DNA of 61,067 bases, filler included, from Basidiobolus ranarum (GCA_040143965.1; 9 parts of 9 records of this genome joined end to end with filler, not necessarily neighbours in it); one strand, 5' to 3'. Counted from the first letter of the whole stretch, positions 1 through 54,390 are shown. Made by a program: numbers and translations. The notes: generated by a model from the letters alone, not told the origin.

Positions 1-195
1 ATACTCCATTGCTTGAGGTGCTACCTGATATTGTGGTTGTATAACGCAAGAGCCGCCATGTTGTCCACACGATCTATCCTTGTAAGTGGTGCTTGCAACT
101 GCATTTGCAAAACCTGGTAAATTATGGAGTGGTGCTGCCAATGTTCCTTGTACCAAGATGCATGAAGAGACCAAAAGAGTTAGGACGGTTTGCAT
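1..195 (-). CDS. Secreted precursor family, copy 1 (5' part only, cut by window/contig start)
   Basis: Manual translation from ATG at 195: MQTVLTLLVSSCILVQGTLAAPLHNLPGFANAVASTTYKDRSCGQHGGSCVIQPQYQVAPQAMEY, clearly paralogous to copies 2-5. Not in the ORF track. Confidence 0.9.
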   Translation of the reverse strand, partial: MQTVLTLLVSSCILVQGTLAAPLHNLPGFANAVASTTYKDRSCGQHGGSCVIQPQYQVAPQAMEY

Positions 196-825
196 GATTG
201 AGGAGTACAGAACACGAATGAAGCAGATACTGTATAGCCAGAAAGTATCTGCAGAACTGTATTTTATACACTTCTGACGAGTTATCATTTACCACACTCT
301 TTAATCTCGCAAACTATCTTTTATATTGTCCAGTGTTGTTTGCTATGTTTTGTTCATCAAAGTGTATAGAGTTGTAAATCAATTTATGCCATATATCAGT
401 ACCTATCTGGTAGTTTTGATACTTGTCCCACTATCTATACGTACTAGATATCAAACCTAAAGTCATTAGCTTGGTTCCTTTATGAATTGCAAGGTACAAT
501 CATGTCAGGTTATACACTGAACATTATTTATAAACATGCACGTAGATTGAGTCAGAGAATTTTTCATATTCCTATAATCACAATAATAGTGAAAAAAATT
601 GAACAGGAAACAAGAAATGCTCTTTAATGAGAACTTCATGATAAGAGAAGGAATCTTGTGGCTTTACCCTCGAATTGGACTGTAGATTCCTGATCTCGTT
701 CATTAAAAACTGAGCATAGCGCAAATTATATTTAGACTAGCATTTATTGAAATATGACAACAGTAACCATAGCCAATGCTATCATATTATAGCATCATGA
801 GGAATATGGAAGAGTTGATTAGAAT

Positions 826-1527
826 TTAGTGTCTATTGCCACTGAAATATCTGATTTTAAAGGAACGGTGAGCAAATTTCTTGTATTTCTTGTAGGCTCT
901 TTTGGGTCGGTGCATTGGCCACTGAGGAATGATGATCTGGGGTTGAGGTGGTTGAGCTGGTTGGTATATAGTCTGGTCAACCAACTGAGCTTGATCAAAT
1001 TGATTCGAATTAGACAGAGCTTGACTATTTTGGGATGTGCGACCTTTCACTTCGTCAAGTAGTGCTTGTTTGGGCTGAAGTTGGCTCAGATCAACATTCC
1101 ATGAAGGAGCGCCTCGGGTTTGGTCCTCAGATCGAGACTGTTCATCTTCAGCGGGTGCTTGTTCGATTTGGCCTTGATCAGGAGTAGATTCATCATCAGT
1201 TGGCTGCTCTGCACCTTGAGTATCTTCAGCTGGAGCTTGTTCCATTTGACCTTCATCTGGGGTGGACTCTTCGTCTGCTGGCTGCTCTTCACTCTGTTGG
1301 TACACTGGCATCATTTGTGGTTGAGCATAACTATACTCTCCCACTTGAGGGGTAGCCTGATATTGAGGTTGTATAGCGCAAGAGCCAACTCGTTCTCCAC
1401 AGGAACTATCGTTGTAAGTGGTGCGTGCAACTGCATTTGCAAAACCTGGTAAATTATGGAGTGGTGCTGCGATTGTTCCTTGAACCAAGATACATGAAGA
1501 GACCAAAAGAGTTAGAGCTGTATGCAT
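826..1527 (-). CDS. Secreted acidic-repeat protein with cationic C-terminal peptide, copy 2 (233 aa)
   Basis: Hydrophobic N-terminus ending QGTIA-AP, CX6C, two acidic 26-aa repeats, ends PKR-AYKKYKKFAHRSFKIRYFSGNRH; intronless; TATAAAA upstream. Confidence 0.92.
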   Translation of the reverse strand: MHTALTLLVSSCILVQGTIAAPLHNLPGFANAVARTTYNDSSCGERVGSCAIQPQYQATPQVGEYSYAQPQMMPVYQQSEEQPADEESTPDEGQMEQAPAEDTQGAEQPTDDESTPDQGQIEQAPAEDEQSRSEDQTRGAPSWNVDLSQLQPKQALLDEVKGRTSQNSQALSNSNQFDQAQLVDQTIYQPAQPPQPQIIIPQWPMHRPKRAYKKYKKFAHRSFKIRYFSGNRH

Positions 1528-2187
1528 GCTTACAGAGTTGTTGATGACAATGATACTGATATAATTAAGGAAAGAGTTGTACTTTTATACATATAGAACC
1601 AGGAGGAATCATGATATGCAGCACTTTAATCTCACTAACTCTCTGTTTTGTTAGATATCACGCAAGGCCATAATTTATATGGAATAAATCCGACGTGCTT
1701 AGCCAATTTTTTAGTCAGATATAGTACTTCTACTCGATTAGAGCATTAATAGTATTTTTGTGTTAAATCGAATTCGAATTATGGTTGATTTAGCAATACA
1801 GTGAGCTATACTAGTACTCACGACTTCTTTTACTAACCTTTAAGCTCTACTGCTAACAATATTACATATACACACCACTGTTTTTTCCAAAGACTGAAGC
1901 ACACATATGTTAAAAATGGCCATTCTACCTGAATATCTTCCTTCTCTATACTTTTAGCTTATTCACGAAAGTCTCACTTCTATTAACCATTATTATTATA
2001 TCTTATTTGGCGTATGGTTCATAATGGTCCTCCATGGATTTGAACTAAAGATATTTCGAATTCTTTATTGAAGTCTGAACATGTTACATACCATATTTAT
2101 AATGATTTTAATCGCCATAGTAGTGCATAATAGCTATTTTTATCTTGTTATACTAACAAAGAAAGTGTAGTTTACATATATCCGAGC

Positions 2188-2907
2188 TTAATGTCTATTC
2201 CCACTAAAATATCTGATCTTAAAAGAACGGTGTGCAAATTTCTTGTATTTCTTGTAGGCTCTTCTGGGTCGGTGCATTGGCCACTGGGGAATGATGATCT
2301 GGGGTTGAGGTGGCTGGGCAGGTTGGTATATAGTCTGGTCAACCAACTGGGCTTGGTCGAATTGGTTCGAATTGGACAATGCTTGACTACCTTGGGATGC
2401 GTGGCCTTTCACTTCGTCCAGTAATGCTTGTTTGGGCTGTAATTGGCTCATGTTCAAGTTCCATGAAGTGGGAGTTGCTGAACTGGACGGAATGTCTTGC
2501 GATTGATCCTCAGATTGAGACTGGTCGTCCTCAGCGGGTGCCTCTTCCATTTGACCTTGATCAGGAGTAGACTCATCGGTTGGCTGCTCTGCACCCTGAG
2601 TATCTTCAGCAGGAGCCTGTTCAACTTGGTCTTGATCAAAAGTGGATCCTTCGCCTTCTGGTTGTTCTTCACTCTGTTGGTATACTGGCATCACTTGTGG
2701 TTGGGCATAACTGTACTTCATTATTTCAGGGGTTGCCTGATATTGGGGCTGTATAACGCAAGAGCCAGCCTGTTCTCCACAAGATTTATCCTTATAAGTA
2801 GTTTGCGCAACCGCATTAGCAAAACTTGGTAGGTTATGGAGGGGAGCGGCCAATGTTCCTTGAGTCAATATAGAAGCAGAGATCAAAAAAGCTAGAGTAG
2901 TTTGCAT
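2188..2907 (-). CDS. Secreted precursor family, copy 3 (239 aa)
   Basis: Same architecture; ends PRR-AYKKYKKFAHRSFKIRYFSGNRH. Confidence 0.92.
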   Translation of the reverse strand: MQTTLAFLISASILTQGTLAAPLHNLPSFANAVAQTTYKDKSCGEQAGSCVIQPQYQATPEIMKYSYAQPQVMPVYQQSEEQPEGEGSTFDQDQVEQAPAEDTQGAEQPTDESTPDQGQMEEAPAEDDQSQSEDQSQDIPSSSATPTSWNLNMSQLQPKQALLDEVKGHASQGSQALSNSNQFDQAQLVDQTIYQPAQPPQPQIIIPQWPMHRPRRAYKKYKKFAHRSFKIRYFSGNRH

Positions 2908-3700
2908 GCTTGTAAAGGTGTCAATGCCAATGATCCAAGTGTAGAATGATTACCTATCCACGAGGAGAACCACCTTTTATACTACTATTACCTGAAAACA
3001 TCATATAGTACACATTTTTAATGCAACTAGCTCTTCCTCTAGAATGTAGTTTAGTTTCAATTGGATTTAAGTGATTAACGAATTTTCGCAATGAACTCTT
3101 CGTACATTCATTCCATTCTGACAGCAGCAATACGACAAAATACCATCACGTGACAATTTGTGTCAACAATTTTTCTAAAAGCTTTAGTATTAAATAACGT
3201 CTATTCTGTAGCACTTTATAGATTACTCTGTCATATGGTTTATACGATTGTTGTTTTGATTTTTAAAGCTAGCTTGTGCCATTTATGAGAGTGGTTGTAT
3301 ATCAGTAATAATTGACCGCTCAAGCGCGAGGTGTTGGCATTGGAATAGAAGGACTGTATTCTCATAGCTTCGGAATATATGAGTATATATTTGTCTTCAT
3401 AATATTCCGCGGATCTCACTGATAGTGTCGACGGTAGCATAGATTCTCCTCGATCGTGCTCAATACTGAACATACTGGTTAAATATTTCACATCTACTAA
3501 ACTTCTGCCGTTACTATGGATATTAAAGTAAAATCTGTGAATTACATGCGAGTTGAACAGTGTTCTTGGTAATGGGTTCCCGATGAAGTGCAAGATTAAT
3601 CACATTCAATCTGTTTATACTTGGACGAACATTTATTCATGTAAGAGACTGTAGTTGCTGTTATGTATCAATAAGAGAGACACTAATCAATGAAGAGAAC

Positions 3701-4363
3701 TTAGTGTCTGTTTCCACTGAAGTATCTGATTTTGAAAGAACGATGGGCAAATTTCTTGTACTTCTTATAAGCTCTTCTGGGACGGTGCATTGGCCACTGG
3801 GGAATGATGATCTGGGGTTGAGGTGGCTGAGCTGGTTGGTATATAGTCTGGTCAACTAACTGGGTTTGATCGAATTTATTCGAGTCCGACAGAGCTTGAC
3901 TACCTTGGGATGCGTGGCCTTTTACTTCGTCTAGTAGCGCTTGCTGGGGCTGTAGTTGATTCAGGTCAACATTCCATGAAGGAGTAGTAGGAGTCTGTGC
4001 CATTTGACCTTGGTCAGGAGTGGATTCATCTTCTGTTGGCTGTTCTGTACTCTGCGAATCTTCGGCAGGAGCTTGTTCCATTTGGCCTTGATCAGGAGTG
4101 GACTCCTCATCTGCTGGCTGTTCTTCAGTCTGCTGATACACTGGCATTGCTTGTGGTTGTACGTAACTATACTTTCTCGCTTGACGAGTTGCCGGATATT
4201 GGAGTTGTGCATCGCATGACCCCGTCTGTTGTCTACAGGATCTGTCTTTGTAAGTGGTTTGTGCTACTGCATTTGCAAACCCTGGTAGGTTATGGACTGG
4301 AACGGCCAATGCTCCTTGAATCACGACGCAAGATGATATCAAAGTGAGTAGAATAGTTTGCAT
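3701..4363 (-). CDS. Secreted precursor family, copy 4 (220 aa)
   Basis: Same architecture, about 1.6 acidic repeats; identical C-terminal peptide. Confidence 0.92.
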   Translation of the reverse strand: MQTILLTLISSCVVIQGALAVPVHNLPGFANAVAQTTYKDRSCRQQTGSCDAQLQYPATRQARKYSYVQPQAMPVYQQTEEQPADEESTPDQGQMEQAPAEDSQSTEQPTEDESTPDQGQMAQTPTTPSWNVDLNQLQPQQALLDEVKGHASQGSQALSDSNKFDQTQLVDQTIYQPAQPPQPQIIIPQWPMHRPRRAYKKYKKFAHRSFKIRYFSGNRH

Positions 4364-4430
4364 GCTTACTGAATGATTAATGCTGATAAACTAAGAACAG
4401 AATGAATATCGACTAACGGGAACTAAGCAC

Positions 4431-4437
4431 TTTTATA
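4431..4437 (-). promoter_or_regulatory. Conserved TATA box of precursor genes (also 262-268, 1583-1589, 2975-2981, 5831-5837)
   Basis: TATAAAA on the minus strand 56-68 nt upstream of the ATG in all five copies, although the surrounding spacers are diverged. Confidence 0.75.
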
Positions 4438-4962
4438 CAAGTAATACCATACCTACAAGTGCTATCTGAAGTGCTTATATAATCTATCAAACAATCTTTT
4501 GCTAATAGGTACATAATAAGCTAACAAGTAGACTACTAAATTAGAAAATATTTACCTAACGGCCCAAGGTATATATTAGTTAATTAATGGGTATCAATTG
4601 GTCCGTCGAGACAATAAAAACTATGTCTAACTTTCTTACCAGCGTATGTTTGCAGCTTTTAGAATTGTTGCCCAACCAAATCATCAGTTTATTTTCATTG
4701 AATACATATCCATATGAAAGAGTGCTCTATCTACCTGTACGGGTATAACTACTGTGGCTAGTAGTAATTCGTACTCTTTATGTGGCAAATATTATACTCC
4801 AAAGGGTTGTACTATGTACTTTGAAAGTAGCAATAATAACGAAACACCGATACTTTAACATGAGTTGTTAGTGTTAATATTCAGAACACTTTATAGAAGG
4901 TTCAGGTTTTATATTCATAATTGCAAGGAGTTATGTAAATAGTCGGTGAAAAAGATGGAGGT

Positions 4963-5763
4963 TTAGTGTCTGTTGCCGCTAAAATATCTTATCTTGAAAG
5001 AACGGTGAGCAAGTTTCTTGTATTTCTTGTAAGCTCTTCTGGGTCGGTGCATTGGCCACTGAGGAATGATGATCTGGGGTTGAGGTGGCTGAGCTGGTTG
5101 GTACACTGTCTGGTCAACTAACTGGGTTTGATCGAATTGGTTTGAATCTGACAGAGCTTGACTACCTTGGGATGCGTGGCCTTTCACCTCGTCAAGTAGC
5201 GCTTGTTTGGGCTGGAGTTGATTCAGATCGACATTCCATGAAGCAGGAGTAGAGGTATAGGAAGGTCCTCCTTGAGTTTGATCCTCAGACTGAGCTTGTT
5301 CATCTTCAGCGGAAGCCTGTTCCATTTGACCTTGATCGGGAGCGGACTCATCATCCATTGGCTGCACTGCGCCTTGAGTATCTTCAGCTGGAGCCTGTTC
5401 CATTTGACCTTGACCAGGAGTGGTATCAACTTCGGTTGGTTGTTCTGTACTTTGATCATTTTCAGCTGGAGCCTGTTCCATTTGGCCCTGGTCAGGAGTG
5501 GACTCCTCGTCTGCTGGCTGTTCTTCAGTCTGCTGATACACTGGCATTGCTTGTGGTTGGACATAACTATACTTTCTCGCTTGACGAATAGCCTGATATT
5601 GGGGTTGTACATCGCAAGGCTCAGTCTGTTGCCCACAAGATCTGTCTTTGTAAGTGGTTTGTGCCACTGCTTTTGCAAACCCTGGTAGGTTATGGACTGG
5701 AACGGCCAATGCTCCTTGAATCACGACGCAAGATGATATCAAAGTGAGTAGAATAGTTTGCAT
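4963..5763 (-). CDS. Secreted precursor family, copy 5 (266 aa)
   Basis: Same architecture, three acidic repeats; tail AYKKYKKLAHRSFKIRYFSGNRH (one F>L change). Confidence 0.92.
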   Translation of the reverse strand: MQTILLTLISSCVVIQGALAVPVHNLPGFAKAVAQTTYKDRSCGQQTEPCDVQPQYQAIRQARKYSYVQPQAMPVYQQTEEQPADEESTPDQGQMEQAPAENDQSTEQPTEVDTTPGQGQMEQAPAEDTQGAVQPMDDESAPDQGQMEQASAEDEQAQSEDQTQGGPSYTSTPASWNVDLNQLQPKQALLDEVKGHASQGSQALSDSNQFDQTQLVDQTVYQPAQPPQPQIIIPQWPMHRPRRAYKKYKKLAHRSFKIRYFSGNRH

Positions 5764-6320
5764 GCTTACTGAATGGTTAATGCTGATAAACTAAGAACAG
5801 AATGAGTATCGGCTAAGGGGAACTAAGCACTTTTATACAAGTAAAAGCAACTCAATAAGTGCTATTCGATGGGCTTTCATAATCTATCAATCGTTCTTTA
5901 TCTAATATGTACATAATAAGCTATGAAGGAGTGTACTAAATTGGGATGTATATACTTAGCGCCACTCAGCCACGGTAGTTTAAACACTATGGCTGACTTG
6001 TTTGCCAACGGATGTCAGTAGGTTTTAGAATAGTTGCCTGACCCAATCATCAATTTCTTTTCACTGTAAATATGTAAACATTGGAAAAGTGCTCTTTACG
6101 GGTCTAACAAATATAACTAGTAACTTGTACTCTTTATGTGGCTAATATTATTTTCCGACGAATTATACTGTATACATATTTGAAAATAGCAACAGCAATG
6201 AAGCAATTTAACTACCATCTATTCGTTGGTTTGACGCTATTGATACTTGAACATGGCATGTTAGTGTTAATATTCTGAATACTTTTATTGAGGATTCAGG
6301 TTTTATATTCGTACTTACAA

Positions 6321-6432
6321 GAGGTTATGGTGGCTGAGCTGGCTGGTACACCGTTTGGTCAACCAACTGGGTCTGATCGAATTGGACAGTACTTGACTAC
6401 GTTGGGATGCGTGGCCTTTCACTTCATCAAGT
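6321..6432 (-). pseudogene. Internal fragment of a sixth precursor copy
   Basis: Encodes LDEVKGHASQRSQVLSN then frameshifts; DNA matches the DQ.QLVDQTVYQPAQPP region; lacks the N-terminus and the cationic tail. Confidence 0.85.
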
Positions 6433-6445
6433 TGTGGTATATCCG

Positions 6446-6715
6446 TTATAATTGACTGCTCAAGCGCAATGTGCGGGTATTGTAATAGAAGGTATGCATT
6501 CTCATAGCTGTAAAATGTATATGAGTATATATTTGTCTTCATAATATTCCGCGGATCTCACTGATAGTGTCGACGGTAGCATAGATTCTCCTCGATCGTG
6601 CTCAAATACTGAACATACTGGTTAAATATTTCACATCTACTAAACTTCTGCCGTTACTATGGATATTAAAGTAAAATCTGAGAATTATATGCGAGTTGAA
6701 CAGTGTTCTTGGTAA
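6446..6715. repeat. Duplicate of inter-copy spacer 3305-3572
   Basis: Near-identical sequence (gagtatatatttgtcttcataatattccgcggatctcactgatagtgtcgacgg...gttcttggtaa). Confidence 0.9.
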
Positions 6716-6815
6716 NNNNNNNNNNNNNNNNNNNNNNNNNNNNNNNNNNNNNNNNNNNNTTAATTAATTAANNNNNNNNNNNNNNNNNNNNNNNNNNNNN
6801 NNNNNNNNNNNNNNN
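6716..6815. other. Synthetic contig spacer (also 13524-13623, 20330-20429, 27132-27231, 33928-34027, 40722-40821, 47511-47610, 54291-54390)
   Basis: Identical 44N-TTAATTAATTAA-44N, with stops in all six frames; contig lengths fall monotonically 6715, 6708, 6706, 6702, 6696, 6694, 6689, 6680, 6677. Confidence 0.98.
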
Positions 6816-9190: not shown

Positions 9191-10069
9191 TTTTGTTTAG
9201 TGAGAAACAATGCAGAGTTTATGGATGTACATGATTGTATATGTTATTAAAGAAACCTTGACTTTTCAGATTCTAGTACTGATATCTGTCAAGCATATTG
9301 ATGAGCACTATGGCCAGAAGCTAGCATCAATATTTGGGTGACATCATCAATAGTATAAGGTGCAAAAGCCAAACTACTATTTGAGCATGCTAGTAGTTTG
9401 ATTGCTGAAGGATTATAAGTGATACAATTGACAAAGTATACATATTATCTAAATTCTTATAGTAGTAAACCCAGTAATTTGTCATTCAAAATTTAGTTTT
9501 CTGCAAAAATTGTCAGAAATTACATAATGCATGCCAACTATGAGGATAAATATCTTACCATGTAGGCTCACCAGCTTAATACCATTAAAAAGCTGCCATC
9601 TCACTATCAAAATTCCTGGCAGAATGCAAGCCTTCAATACTATGATGGTCATCCAACAGTTTTGCTATCCAGAAAAGTGGATGCAATCCAGATCAAGTTG
9701 ATTTTATTTCTGTTTGCGGATTGACAAGTGTTTGCCACTTTACCAGCATGCTGATTAGCAACAGTTGCCAATCAACGGTGATAAAGTATAACAAAGCTAA
9801 TATACACCTGGCTGACAAGATTGGATTGAACTCTCAGCTCCTGAATAATCAAAGCTCCTTCCTCTACTCTAAGTGTTATGGGTGCACTACTGCTTTCTAA
9901 TAACAAAGAGTTTTCCAGACTTACTTGTTTAACTAAACTTGCACTTCTACCTACATCATTCTGCTCATATAACTTGGATAACTCCATAGTATCTTGAATT
10001 TCAGCAGGGTTACCAAAATTTTGAGGAAAAGCACAGCTAGTGGACTCAGTGGACAAAACTTGGTCAAAG

Positions 10070-13523: not shown

Positions 13524-13623
13524 NNNNNNNNNNNNNNNNNNNNNNNNNNNNNNNNNNNNNNNNNNNNTTAATTAATTAANNNNNNNNNNNNNNNNNNNNN
13601 NNNNNNNNNNNNNNNNNNNNNNN

Positions 13624-20329: not shown

Positions 20330-20429
20330 NNNNNNNNNNNNNNNNNNNNNNNNNNNNNNNNNNNNNNNNNNNNTTAATTAATTAANNNNNNNNNNNNNNN
20401 NNNNNNNNNNNNNNNNNNNNNNNNNNNNN

Positions 20430-24235: not shown

Positions 24236-26504
24236 GGAAGAAAAGAGAAGAGTTGCGATTGCACTCTTTCGATGTGAAGCTATTAAGTATCCAACGGTAA
24301 ATTAATCTCATTGGATCCAGAGTGGAATTACGTAGTGGATAAAATGATGTCACTATCTTTGCAATCAATTGGAGTGCCTTGGCTGATGTTAGAGCCATTT
24401 GATTATTCAGCAGCCGCTATCATCTAGTTATAGCTTTTCAGCCCATGCACCTATTTGTCAAGAGGAGATTAACGTCAGCTTAGGATCTTGGGAATATCCA
24501 ATTGGAAGAGGCTAAGATAGGCTATAATGCATATTCAATATCAGGGGAGTTGAGGGAGAAATGAACTTGTTAGCATTATAGTTGAGACGCTGGTTAGATT
24601 TTCCAGATACGAATACTGTTCCTATGAATTACCTTTATTAGGTGGCCGCAGTAGGAGTGTGGAGTAAAGGCTTAATCGGATTACTGTTCGTGGGGTTCAT
24701 CAGTGATTCTTTCCGGTTATGGAGTTTTCACTACCAATTTCATCGACATCAGGGCTTAAAAAGCTCGTCAATATAGGTGTGTGCAGATTAGATCATCCCA
24801 CAGTTGTGTGGTTCTTTCAGAGTAGTCAGCCTCAATGATTCATTTATTGCTGCATTCTATCTCAAGTCAACAATTTCTCATCGTCAGTGTTGATGCGATG
24901 ATTAGAATGCATCCATTTGCAGGCCCTACCAATGACGCTGGCGGTCGATGCTTAGTTGGTATGTAAAGATGCAAATCTATCCATAGGGAAGTGAGTCCAT
25001 GCCAGAAGCAACTCTTATTTATGAATTCAAGGGTAGCGAGTTCCAGAGATCTCGATTGTAAACGATTCTGGGATTATTATTTCTGATCAATTAATAATAC
25101 AATAGACGTACTTCGACATCCTAGTATAATGATAACAATATCACTGCAGAGTGACTTTTAGTGCGCATGTGTTATTACTATTTTCCGTGATACTACATGA
25201 AAGACCTCTCTGCTTGGCACTTCGATTATATGCCAAACAGGCTTTACATGTAAGAAATAAGAAACTCTAATGCTTCAATAGTCCTATATTGAAGTCAGTA
25301 CTATGCTACGTCCATCACCTGTACATGATAAACCTGGATAACTAACAATATTGTCAAGAAAAGCTATTGATACCACGCTTCACTGGATATGTCTACACAC
25401 ACACATTGTTACACATTACGAATATGCCTAAAGCATAAGAGACGAATCCAATGAGCAGGTACATACACTACTATATCCATAGAACCAAGAAGCAAGCTCG
25501 TTTTCTATATATCAACCCTAACTATATTGCTGCTATTCCCCATGGCTTCATCAACTTCTCCAGTTGCTCTAATATATGGAAGCAAATTAATGAGAACATA
25601 TTTGTCTTTACTGAAATTGAAGATTTTCAGTAAGCGTAGATATGCTTTATTGAAAGCAAGTTATCGTGCATTGTGTCATTCATTGCTATCCATTCTAAGA
25701 TTGTATCCAGAGTAAATTACTTGGGTGGGGAAACGTTTACTCGTATTAATCTTCAGAGTGTGGTAATAATTTCTTGTATCGTCCACCATATAGCTCTAAC
25801 GAATTATTGGTTGAGTGTGGGTCATCACTGGCTGTTGGGTTGAGTTTGGGAAACTGATAATTATCCGACTCGAATCAGTTTGACCATGTTCAATCAATGA
25901 CTCTCCATATGTTTGATCCAGCAATAGTTGATTCGGGTGTAACTGAGCTATGTTTAAACCTGTTATAGAGGCTAAAGGAGGGTGACAACTCATACTGGTC
26001 CTGGTTGGGTCAGGCTTGTTCCTCATAAATATGATCAGGTGTAGTCTCAGGTAGATTTTCAAGTGACTCATCTGGAGTTACTAGGGTTGGGTCTGTTTCA
26101 AACTCATACGCTTTGACAAGGCGTTGCTCATCGTTCAAGTTTTGACTGGCCATCGGGCGGATTCTCCAGTGTCTGACCTGTTTCTACATTGTCTCCCTGA
26201 CTGGAATTTAGTTCTTCCTGAAGTTGTTCAGGCTGCGATTGTTCATCAACTTGTGACTCCACTGTTGATATTGGCTGGTTTTCAGTGAAGCCATCTCTTG
26301 TAGTTGGGAATGTCGGGTAGAGGTTTCACGCTGCATGCTTTCTAGCGATACACTTGATTCCGTGTCTGGCTATTTCACTTCCGAGAGATAATCCTGGGTT
26401 CTTCCTCTAAGAACTTAAGTGAACATTGTAGAAAATCCTAACCCTAAATCACCTTGCATAATGGAGTCCGAATTGAAAACTTGACAATCCCAATATTGGG
26501 TATT

Positions 26505-34639: not shown

Positions 34640-37600
34640 TTGGAAATATTAATTAGATTGCTTCCACCAATTTTCACTATTTTCTGAATACTTCTCCAAA
34701 TCACCTCAATTTTTCACCTATGCCTTACAGGCATGTATGTTATGATCCAAGCACATCCAATAGTCCTACTTCATAGTAAACTATAAATAGGGCTTGTTCT
34801 AATTAATAAAACTTAAGTTTACAATTCACAAATCTAAATCTTGTGCAAGCTACTACCAAATCCCCTAAATACTTTGAATAGGTTATGAGTGCCAGGCTAG
34901 CTATTAAAGTAAAGTTGACCAGTACTATTACCAACACCTTGTATCCACAGAGATGTTTGCTAGTGACTACTTTCACCTTCGGAAGTTCAATATGCAAATA
35001 GTGCTAGAAGACAAGGACCTTTGGGGATATGTTCAAGGAGAAGAAATTGAGCCAAACCAACCATCAGAAGCTATCCTTGCCTTTCACAAGATGCAGAGGA
35101 AAGCACTCTCCACACTTTGTCTACATCTGAAAGACTCTCAATTGAGACACATGCACTGAGCTAATATCATCTAAAATGCTTGGAAAACACTTGAGAGACA
35201 GTTTGAGACCAAAAGACTGACTAATAGACCATATCTCTGGGCAAAACTACTCCTAATATGGATGAGTTCTTATAATTTGGGGTATGTAAATAAGACACTT
35301 AGTTCTTATTGGATTGAATATGTCCAATCTATAGCTTTACAATGAAACAGAGCTATTGAACATGCCTACATTGTAACAAGCATGCCTGTAAAGCATGGGT
35401 GGAGATTTGAGATGAATTGGAGAAGTTTTGGGATAATAGTGAAAATTGGTAAGTGTTATCTAGTTGACATATCTATCAACTAGAGCAATAAAACACATTT
35501 TTGAATGGCAAAATTGAGTGCCAAGTAATCAGGACAAGACTGAACTAACTTCTAAGTAATGAGTTGCTCAACAGGCAAATTCTACTTAGGTGATGACTAT
35601 GCACAAGATGCAGCTGGTAAGGGCACACCATTTGCAAAATTTGGATAATGTACTCTATATACCAAATAAAGCCCAGAACCAAATGGCAGTAAGCCAAGCT
35701 ACAGCTCAGGGACTAAGCTTCACGTTTAGCATGGCAGGATGCACTATCACAGATCAGAATAATACCAAGTCTACTACAGAATTCAAAACTCAAAACTTAT
35801 ACAAGCTTGGAATCAACAAATTTCATCCTGAGCTTGCAAACATGGCCCAACACCAATTATATTAGCTGTTGGACATGGCATAGAAGATTAGGCCACTTTG
35901 GGGAAAATACTGACCCAAATGAGTGTAAATCAGCCTGTTTCAGACTTCAAAATTGAAAATATCACCAACTTGGATTTATATGAAGGTTGCATTCATGTAA
36001 AAATTCACAGACAGCCATTTTCAAGCTCTGGAGTGACCAAATCTTCTCCCAATCTTATTGTGATTTATTCTGACTTATGTTGGCCTATGAAAAAATCCAA
36101 CTAGGTGGCAAAAGATACTTCATCACCTTTATTCTTGATAAAAAAAGATATACTTGGGTATTCTTTCTCAAATCACTATCAGAAGACTTAACTATGCTCA
36201 TGCACTATGGAGTAATGGTAGAGAAGAAATCTGCACATAAAATAAGGGCACTTAAGCATGGTTGCAAGGGAGAATTGTGCTCTAAAAATGCTGGTAGTTA
36301 TTGCTCTAAACATGCAATTAAGCAACAAACTGCTAAACCATATACTCCACAGCAAAGTAGAGGTGCAGAACCTGCTAATAGCACCATATTAGAGATTGCT
36401 AGATTCATGATAAAAGATCAAAAGCTAGATCAGCAATGTTAGGCTGAATATGTCTCCACTGCAGTCTATCTTGAAAACAGATGCCCATCAAGATTGCTTC
36501 AAAATTCCACTCTAATAAGGCCCTGTATGAATCAAAACCAAGTGCAGATCATCTCAGGATCTTTGGGTGCACAGCATATAGCCTAATTCCAGCTTAAAAA
36601 TGCTCCTAATTGGAATATAAAAGCAGTAAATGCATATTTCTTGGTTACTGTGATGTATTGCAGGCCTACAGACTGCTCTATACCAAAAAACACAAGTTAA
36701 TCAAGTACAGTGATGTAACATGAGAAGGAAAAGATGCTTTTTCATCAAAAATCACAATTTCTGATCCAGAAAATATAATCAGCACTATTCAGAATGTGTT
36801 TGACAAGATTCCAGCTGTATCTCAGCTCAATTCAACCAAATTTACAGACCCTATTACTTCAGAAGAAGATTTAGGACCTTGAAGATCATCCAGAAGGACT
36901 AACAAGCTAGAGAGCTTATGGAACACTCCCAATGTGTATGTCTTCACTTATGCAGCATTGAGTGATAAGCTAGAGAATATATATCAAGCTCTGGAGTTTT
37001 CAAAATCCAAATTATGGGAAAAAGCAATATCTGATGAGTTTGTTTACTTCAGGACATTAAAAACATGGGTTTTAGGCCCTCTACCATCAGTGTGAAAGCA
37101 AATAGGTTGCAAATGGGTTTAAAAAGTCCAAAACCTAGCTGCTGCAATCATAGGTACAATGCTAGGTTAGTTGCAAAAGGTTATACCCAGACTCCAGGAG
37201 TTAACTTTACTGAATCTTTTGCTCAAGTAGCTAAGTTATCTCCATTAAATGAATTTCAGCACTCTCACCCAACTATAACTTTGATTGATCAAATGGATGC
37301 AAAAATAGCATTTCCATATGGATATGTAGAAATAGCAACCTTTATGGAACAACAACATGAATTTGTCAACCTAAAACATACTGATATGGTATTTATACTG
37401 CACAAATTGCTATATGGCCTCAAGCAAGCACCCAGAGTATGGTGCATCAAGTTAGATAGCTATTTAGAATCACTGGAATTCAAAAAATGCCCAGCATATT
37501 GCTGTTTTTACATCAAAACCACCAGAGATAGGATCCTTATCTTGACACTGTATGTGGATGATGTGATCATAGTCCCAAATGCTCAGGAAGCATTTAATCA

Positions 37601-38290
37601 GACAATAAGCTGCTTGTTAAAACAGTTTCCAATGATGGATATGTGTGCATTATAATATTTCCTTGTAATCCAAATCAAGAGAGATATGCTCAATGAGAAA
37701 GTTGTGCTGAATCTACCTAGATACAACCCAGACATCCTAAAATGCTTTAACACAGAGAATAGCAAGCCTATATCAGCAACAAAGGTTCCCTATGTGAAAT
37801 TAATCAAATTTTAGCCAATTTGGCTCAAAATGACTTATAACAAAGCAAGGAGTCCCTTATCAATCCATGGTCCCTATTTGATGTACTCAATGGTCAGGAC
37901 ACATCCAGATATTGCTTTGGCAGTGGGAACTGTCAGCTAGTATCTCAAACATCCAGGACCTGGGCACAAAACTGCAGTAAATTTAATATTCAAGTACTTG
38001 AGAGGAACTGCAGATTTAGTTCTGCAATAATTTGGCACTCCTGATGCACAAAACTTTCAAGGCTGCAATAATGCAAACTTGGGAAGAAACCATGATAATA
38101 GAAGATCAACAACTGGGTACACTTTTCTCTATGGTAATAAAGCTATAACTTGGAATAGTAAGAGGCATTCAGCTGTGGCACTTTACACTTCAGAAGTAGA
38201 GTATACAGCCACCTCTGCTAGTACACAAGAAGCTATGTAGCTAAGGATGTTACTTTCAGACTTAGGATACATGCAAATATGCTGTTCAAG
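34640..38290 (+). mobile_element. Near full-length degenerate Ty1/Copia element, with an inverted LTR at about 35273-35570 inside gag
   Basis: 5' LTR ends at 34880; PBS GGTTATGAG; gag LEDKDLWGYV; WHRRLGH; YSDLCWPM; YTPQQSRGAE; ARLVAKGYTQ; LYGLKQAPR; LYVDD; RSTTGY. Confidence 0.92.
34881..34893 (+). promoter_or_regulatory. Copia-type primer-binding site (internal tRNA-iMet type)
   Basis: GGTTATGAGTGCC directly after the LTR end; resembles GGTTATGGGCCC of Drosophila copia-like elements. Confidence 0.7.
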
Positions 38291-54230: not shown

Positions 54231-54390
54231 TTGTATGCTATGCCTATATTGCTAGGGGACCTGAACCTAGTCTGTTGATGTATGGTACTTNNNNNNNNNN
54301 NNNNNNNNNNNNNNNNNNNNNNNNNNNNNNNNNNTTAATTAATTAANNNNNNNNNNNNNNNNNNNNNNNNNNNNNNNNNNNNNNNNNNNN

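Follow-up and report, generated by a model that had tools for sequence, protein, structure and literature searches.

A tandem array of orphan Basidiobolus genes encoding predicted secreted proteins with a strongly constrained basic tail

Organisation of the array and anatomy of its proteins

The window analysed here is a 61,067-nucleotide stretch of DNA from Basidiobolus ranarum (GCA_040143965.1) that consists of nine contigs of ~6.7 kb joined by artificial spacers, and our subject is the gene array carried by the first of these contigs (positions 1–6715). Four complete paralogues, g1 to g4, lie there together with one 5′ fragment of a further paralogue and one decayed remnant, all on the minus strand. 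The four complete open reading frames (ORFs) are intron-free, and successive start-to-start distances from g1 to g4 are 1362, 1513 and 1262 nt, in line with an earlier note on this DNA, made from the sequence alone, which had described at least five intronless same-strand paralogues about 1.3–1.5 kb apart. The same TATA box precedes all four genes and the fragment, 56–68 nt upstream of their ATGs, and these account for five of its six matches in the window. The features of the contig are as follows.

1–195 (minus): 5′ part of another paralogue, 65 codons comprising the signal peptide and the N-terminal piece with the CX6C motif; the contig end truncates the gene
262–269 (minus): TATA box GTATAAAA of the fragment gene, 67 nt upstream of the ATG
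826–1527 (minus): paralogue g1 (P0001), 233 residues, site RPKR, tail codons 829–897
1144–1292 (minus): 78-nt (26-residue) acidic tandem repeat in g1, 1.9 copies
1583–1590 (minus): TATA box of g1, 56 nt upstream of the ATG
2188–2907 (minus): paralogue g2 (P0002), 239 residues, site RPRR, tail codons 2191–2259
2975–2982 (minus): TATA box of g2, 68 nt upstream of the ATG
3701–4363 (minus): paralogue g3 (P0003), 220 residues, site RPRR, tail codons 3704–3772
3989–4133 (minus): 78-nt acidic tandem repeat in g3, 1.9 copies
4431–4438 (minus): TATA box of g3, 68 nt upstream of the ATG
4963–5763 (minus): paralogue g4 (P0004), 266 residues, site RPRR, F-to-L variant of the tail, tail codons 4966–5034
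5295–5524 (minus): 78-nt acidic tandem repeat in g4, 2.9 copies
5831–5838 (minus): TATA box of g4, 68 nt upstream of the ATG
6316–6431 (minus): decayed core-only remnant with a frameshift and a stop, lacking both tail and start

The encoded proteins follow one order of modules: a signal-like N-terminus, a piece with a CX6C pair, an acidic spacer built of 26-residue repeats, a Q/N/P-rich core of ~60 residues and a basic tail. All four complete proteins terminate in RP(K/R)R followed by AYKKYKK(F/L)AHRSFKIRYFSGNRH and the stop codon. The 23-residue tail holds five Lys, three Arg, two His, three Tyr and three Phe with no Asp or Glu, giving it a net charge of +8, and both the P(K/R)R-plus-tail ending and the composition given for it in the earlier note are borne out in every complete copy. 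Spacer copy number (1.9–2.9) accounts for the differences in length between paralogues, g4 being the longer protein because it carries 2.9 copies of the repeat.

Three elements stand out as conserved in the family alignment, namely the N-terminal CX6C pair, the core and the basic tail. The core, with the consensus LQPxQALLD...ALSNSNQFDQAQ..DQT.YQP...QIII..., is conserved across a wider set of members than the tail and is, on the evidence of the alignment, the family-defining part. The single ‘D/E/Q-rich spacer’ described earlier therefore needs to be divided: its acidic portion is real and corresponds to the 78-nt/26-residue tandem repeats, which contain neither Lys nor Arg, whereas its Q-rich portion is the separate conserved core, which had been overlooked. 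From the core motif to the C-terminus the distance is 44–46 residues in nearly all full-length members. Overall the proteins are 16% Gln and 10% Pro with a K/Y/F-rich end, and the mature protein has two Cys only, those of the CX6C pair. A further conserved motif, LLRQVFTTVTRK...KYQAGPS, lies N-terminal of the core in the longer members P0025, P0030, P0033, P0034, P0038, P0043 and P0046; the idea that it arose from the core by an old duplication was rejected at an hhalign probability of 0.3%.

The signal-like character of the N-terminus, also part of the earlier description, is supported by a hydrophobic 10-mer in all window copies (Kyte–Doolittle mean 2.45–2.52, from residue 5–6) and by a helix at residues 3–15 in the AlphaFold2 model. 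By a simple hydrophobicity rule, 38 of the 52 family models that start with Met have such an N-terminus, all window copies included, and those that fail the rule are mostly visibly truncated. The hydrophobicity check of the family models revealed no transmembrane or other hydrophobic segment after the N-terminus and no C-terminus resembling a glycosylphosphatidylinositol (GPI) signal, the last 20 residues having a mean of about −1.4, which does not qualify as a GPI signal. AlphaFold2, run on a 20-sequence family alignment, returned a mean predicted local distance difference test (pLDDT) score of 49.7 and a predicted template modelling (pTM) score of 0.13; secondary structure is confined to the signal helix, and only residues 190–210 reach raised confidence (pLDDT 68–80). 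The mature protein is thus predicted to be disordered, in which case one would expect R-P-(K/R)-R to lie exposed.

Divergent relatives retain the core while ending differently. The last 21 residues of P0043 hold ten Arg and four Cys, P0049 has an Arg/Tyr-rich end with two Cys, and in both an acidic run immediately precedes the basic tail. A basic C-terminal peptide is thus a theme that recurs across subfamilies.

Selection on the genes and distribution of the family

Pairwise Nei–Gojobori estimates of the ratio of non-synonymous to synonymous substitution (dN/dS, ω) between the four window paralogues range from 0.6–1.0 in the signal peptide and 0.14–0.35 in the N-terminal mature piece to 0.06–0.19 in the acidic spacer and 0.06–0.13 in the conserved core, and are at most 0.012 in the tail where calculable (at most 0.04 for site and tail together). 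Across the 23 tail codons, pairs of paralogues show 6–12 synonymous differences, which at ~12 synonymous sites amounts to saturation, against 0–1 non-synonymous differences. Gene conversion was considered as the source of the tail identity and rejected, as g3 and g4 have identical signal codons yet differ at ten synonymous positions in the tail. Saturated synonymous sites in the absence of conversion argue that the tail is kept by strong selection at the protein level, and it ranks among the most strongly constrained short peptide segments that can be demonstrated from paralogues alone. In the tail, 6–12 of 23 codons carry a synonymous difference, compared with ~14–18 of 61 in the core, the higher share in the tail probably being an effect of its many two-fold codons and of small numbers.

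When paralogous units are compared, the coding DNA is 72–94% identical whereas the flanks, at 35–55%, are close to random. The exception is the region upstream of g3 and g4, which stays 71–99% identical. Comparison of these two units (3701–4800 and 4963–6200, minus strand) gives 99% identity around the ATG, with no differences in 20 signal codons, 71–79% in the upstream regions and 37–41% downstream of the genes, where the 3′ ends, with their saturated tail codons, are old, a mosaic that fits, and seems to indicate, a recent 5′ tract of gene conversion or unequal crossing-over. The far end of the contig bears another trace of such exchange: positions 6430–6715, joined to the core-only remnant, are a copy of the g2–g3 intergenic sequence 3290–3572 (77–100% identity), and this copy is a scar of unequal recombination in the array.

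The genes are real and functional. Relatives in two other Basidiobolus genomes, together with a dN/dS of at most 0.04 for the tail, place the array far beyond chance. A repeat or pseudogene array of non-functional or mis-called ORFs could draw on the remnant at 6316–6431 and on the decayed relative at ~25706–26200, but this explanation is hardly credible in the face of four intact ORFs, ω well below 1 in every mature segment, randomised flanks, conserved TATA boxes and intact, orthologue-grade copies in two other genomes, and we regard it as effectively refuted. The decayed relative itself, on another contig (~25706–26200, minus strand), is a pseudogene of a divergent subfamily with pieces in different frames and stops between them, and is nearest to P0037 and P0051 of B. 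ranarum.

A word-indexed search (E ≤1e-3) found 28 proteins, comprising the window's own four and 24 named as ‘hypothetical protein’ of B. ranarum or B. meristosporus. An exhaustive search of 1.84 billion representative proteins with a hidden Markov model (HMM) profile of the family, again at E ≤1e-3, gave 27 matches: 24 carry the name of B. ranarum or B. meristosporus, one is the window's own 65-residue fragment (P0041), and two (P0030 and P0035), for which there was no name look-up, closely resemble by eye P0025 and P0028, both of which are named as B. meristosporus proteins. No HMM match among the 1.84 billion proteins was named as coming from outside Basidiobolus, and on this sequence evidence we consider the family an orphan restricted to that genus. 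By named gene models, B. ranarum K7432 has at least 21 members and B. meristosporus at least 26. A tandem array exists in B. ranarum too, where, of eight consecutive locus tags (009542–009549) on a single contig of 11,675 bp, seven belong to the family; with this second array, and with every named relative from Basidiobolus, the earlier suggestion of an amplified fungal tandem family stands. The B. meristosporus models P0026–P0028 and P0035 look like fusions of neighbouring genes.

In a maximum-likelihood tree, g3 and g4 pair (support 100/98), while g1 and g2, with best identities of 83–85%, fall into an unresolved group with B. ranarum copies and do not pair with other copies of the window. 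Seven of the eight B. meristosporus copies in the tree form their own clade (100/100), the long-branch P0031 (Bmer_307623) being unplaced. By this tree the DNA comes from a Basidiobolus that is near to the K7432 assembly of B. ranarum without being identical to it.

The earlier note had recognised no known family, and the searches agree. Pfam hmmscan of the four window proteins at E up to 1 gave a sub-threshold IFT57 match as its sole result; a PDB sequence search produced one meaningless match for the C-terminal 90 residues (E = 9.8) and none for the last 28; the ESM Atlas, queried with the whole protein and with residues 150–239, offered no usable feature match, its structural rows lying below a TM score of 0.5 with a model pLDDT of 0.41; and 135 pattern matches in JGI metagenome contigs included no relatives. 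The tail motif KIRYFSGNR has no mention in the searchable literature, and the family goes unmentioned in the accessible portions of the Basidiobolus secretome, antimicrobial-peptide and transcriptome literature, including PMC9391592 and bioRxiv 10.1101/2025.03.31.646025. The members of the family are already public as ‘hypothetical’ proteins and are uncharacterised.

In each spacer between contigs, a 12-base linker with stops in all frames (ttaattaattaa) is flanked on either side by 44 N. Because the joints are artificial, sequences on either side of them are unlinked and the array has no linked context past 6715. The remaining features of the window are the following.

6716–6815, 13524–13623, 20330–20429, ... 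54291–54390: artificial contig joints
20538–21548: ORF with an RRM domain, on another contig
37038–37655 (plus): ORF fragment on another contig matching Pfam RVT_2 (Copia-type reverse transcriptase, E = 3e-30), a retrotransposon remnant

Processing, attachment and the function of the tail

We tentatively favour the reading that these are pro-proteins processed by a kexin, from which a cationic peptide, non-lytic and directed at a specific anionic target, would be released. The disordered pro-protein would enter the secretory pathway via its signal peptide, and in the late secretory pathway a convertase of the kexin/furin type would cut at R-P-(K/R)-R|A, freeing the 23-residue, non-amphipathic tail with its net charge of +8. 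The freed tail could then act as a non-lytic cationic peptide specific for a polyanion or another target, histatin-like rather than dermaseptin-like in composition; interference with gut or soil microbes would be its most plausible role, and tandem amplification would serve dosage.

Several observations support such processing. These include the signal-like N-termini, the lack of a later hydrophobic or GPI-type segment, the predicted exposure of the site and the recurrence of basic C-terminal peptides in divergent members. In the window's clade, 11 of 13 members keep KR/RR at this position (RR in nine, KR in two) and 12 of 13 keep R-x-x-R. In B. meristosporus, a KR is present in 14 of 15 members and lies six residues further in, within the invariant KKYK motif and upstream of the shared FK(I/V)RY...GNR end. 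Each protein has one KR/RR. The established specificity of Kex2 is for KR/RR, and one would expect sites prone to kexin to disappear from a tail that had to remain attached. Secreted precursors processed by Kex2 are also unusually frequent in the genus, which we count in favour: in the accessible text of PMC7329392, B. meristosporus has the most Kex2-processed repeat proteins (KEPs) of 1461 strains, with 43. Among these, type ‘S-3’, described in the same text as rich in Y and D repeats, is probably a different family.

Other observations weigh against this reading. The dibasic site that the earlier note had placed before the tail is largely upheld within the window's clade, where P0005 (RK) and P0010 (TR) are the exceptions, but at the homologous position a dibasic pair is missing from all 15 members of B. 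meristosporus, and four of the six other tail-bearing members (P0033, P0034, P0037 and P0038) lack any KR/RR. Taken across the alignment, P(K/R)R is a clade-specific site whose position is not conserved family-wide. A cut at the KR of B. meristosporus would sever KKYK from the remaining tail, and the basic cluster may simply start at HRPRR. The core is more widely conserved than the tail and the spacer is under purifying selection, which suggests that the whole protein matters and not the 23-mer alone; antimicrobial peptides, moreover, usually diversify, whereas this tail is invariant. Nor does the tail show the physics of a lytic peptide. Its helical hydrophobic moment (at 100 degrees) is 0.283, a value reached by 32% of 5000 shuffles, its strand moments of 0.17–0.19 are reached by 48–68%, and its mean hydrophobicity is −0.42. 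With no amphipathicity beyond chance in a hydrophilic segment, and no helix in the tail of the AlphaFold2 model, a membrane-lytic helix of the dermaseptin type finds no support, and the same holds for one of the candidalysin type. The earlier suggestion that the acidic spacer neutralises the tail fares little better: the tail is constant at +8, but the part of the protein upstream of the core varies in net charge between −28 and +9 and so does not track it, which speaks against stoichiometric neutralisation and leaves at best a qualitative effect. The divergent members P0043 and P0049, with an acidic run immediately before the basic tail, are on the other side of this balance.

Much of this evidence would sit comfortably with a protein that is never cut, a less probable but serious contender in which the basic Lys/Tyr/Phe-rich tail anchors the whole mature protein ionically to polyanions such as the polymers of the fungal wall itself, the mucus of the host or an insect surface. 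As a variant, such a structural or surface protein might be cross-linked through its Gln-rich core and Lys-rich tail, or its acidic block and basic tail might form a polyampholyte adhesive matrix by the logic of mussels and sandcastle worms; hyphae, conidia or sticky capilliconidia are possible sites. Purifying selection on all modules, a core that is the most widely conserved element, the fixed distance from core to C-terminus and a dibasic site without conserved position are all in keeping with it, as is an invariant tail, which is what one expects of a binding module with a fixed partner. The richness in Gln and Pro and the K/Y/F-rich end point the same way, and tandem arrays are common for abundant structural proteins. 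It has, on the other hand, to accommodate the retention of KR/RR in both main clades, since Kex2 normally cuts at such a pair when the secreted protein that bears it is disordered, and the familiar marks of surface proteins are missing: a GPI signal is absent, Pfam at E up to 1 gave no PIR repeat, and a protein with two Cys has no hydrophobin-like pattern.

Invariance of the tail could also reflect a specific receptor, which would explain it better than a generic membrane target does. This would make the protein a signalling-peptide precursor (autocrine, developmental or pheromone-like) with the layout of the plant CLE, RALF and RGF precursors, that is, a hyper-conserved C-terminal peptide behind a more variable N-terminal region with a dibasic site upstream of the peptide. 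We consider this improbable, as a signal would not usually be encoded by more than 20 gene models per genome with the same peptide, conservation of the core is just as strong, there is no known candidate for a receptor and, to our knowledge, peptide pheromones have not been described in zygomycete-grade fungi. Less probable still, and in our view very unlikely, is a precursor of a peptide that is ribosomally synthesised and post-translationally modified (a RiPP), from which a short conserved stretch, such as P-Q-I-I-I-(P/T)-Q in the core or the Tyr-rich tail, would be excised and modified. The core does contain short invariant Pro-flanked motifs, AlphaFold2 confidence is raised nowhere but in the P-Q-I-I-I-(P/T)-Q segment, and the available part of PMC7466969 portrays Basidiobolus as rich in secondary metabolism. 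However, the conserved region spans ~90 residues and is not a short core, it lacks the KR-flanked core-peptide repeats of dikaritin or KEP precursors, and the contig holds the array only, with no gene for a modifying enzyme.

Although we lean towards the kexin-processed pro-protein, what we describe is an orphan family of interest and not a demonstrated antimicrobial system: a clean family with an unusually strong selection signature and a function that is inferred entirely. It could be new as a secreted precursor with a C-terminal cationic peptide or, alternatively, as a new sort of fungal surface (wall or adhesive) protein. We know of barely any ribosomal cationic peptides from zygomycete-grade fungi, and the family may bear on how Basidiobolus persists alongside gut bacteria, adheres to the insects that carry it or forms its surface.

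Comparison with known systems

The precursors of dermaseptins and cathelicidins display the same succession of a signal peptide, an anionic or conserved pro-region and a C-terminal cationic peptide, although there is no sequence or Pfam relationship to either. The dermaseptin-type layout proposed in the earlier note is apt for the order of the parts, while the pattern of conservation is the reverse: dermaseptin precursors combine a conserved signal and propiece with a hypervariable mature peptide, whereas here the signal (ω 0.6–1.0) and the N-terminal part vary most, and site and tail hardly at all (at most 0.04). The tail also forms no amphipathic helix, and the position of the putative cleavage site is not conserved. 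The resemblance to cathelicidins lies in one conserved pro-part, here the core, that is combined with different cationic tails across subfamilies. By this analogy, and we think it unlikely, an early-diverging gut fungus might have acquired a host-defence-style, cathelicidin-like peptide system in which the genus-specific core would be a chassis for secretion and processing of interchangeable C-terminal cationic warheads, namely the Lys/Tyr-rich 23-mer in the present array and, in sister subfamilies, tails that are either Arg/Cys-rich and hairpin-like or Arg/Tyr-rich. If true, such cathelicidin-like arrays would have been amplified for competition with bacteria in the guts of amphibians and reptiles.

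The Kex2-processed precursors of other fungi (alpha-factor, Ece1/candidalysin, the KEPs and the Ustilago Rep1 repellents) share with this family their fungal origin, a signal peptide and KR/RR in an accessible region. As defined in the accessible text of PMC6339444, KEPs contain at least three repeated peptides, each flanked by KR/RR; the present proteins have one such site and one C-terminal peptide, and their 26-residue repeats are devoid of Lys and Arg, which places them outside that definition. Ece1 carries several KR-bounded peptides including a hydrophobic amphipathic helix, unlike the single site and hydrophilic tail found here. In composition and physics alone the tail is closer to the salivary histatins, which are likewise short, unstructured, non-amphipathic and rich in basic and aromatic residues, although there is no homology, the tail has only two His and its origin is fungal. 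A further parallel in layout is offered by the CLE, RGF/GLV and RALF precursors of plants, multigene families in which a signal peptide and a variable pro-region precede a highly conserved C-terminal peptide, and RALF is released at a dibasic site. These too are without homology to the present family, which differs in its second conserved module of ~60 residues and in its many copies of an identical peptide.

Other parallels concern the fungal surface. The PIR proteins of yeast are secreted, processed by Kex2 and linked to the wall through short Gln-containing motifs, of which the Q-x-x-D-Q-T-x-Y-Q-like strings in the core are reminiscent; the Pfam PIR repeat (PF00399), however, is unmatched, and there is neither a D-G-Q motif nor a tandem PIR repeat. 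The eight-cysteine pattern of hydrophobins is absent. Mussel foot proteins and sandcastle-worm cement resemble the present family, by compositional analogy only, in that a secreted and disordered protein joins a Lys/Tyr-rich basic segment to a strongly acidic block; Gly-rich repeats and repeats in a 3,4-dihydroxyphenylalanine (DOPA) context are absent from the family. Basidiobolus makes adhesive capilliconidia, and a polyampholyte of acidic block and basic tail acting as a spore adhesive would be an alternative every bit as unusual as a cathelicidin-like system in a gut fungus.

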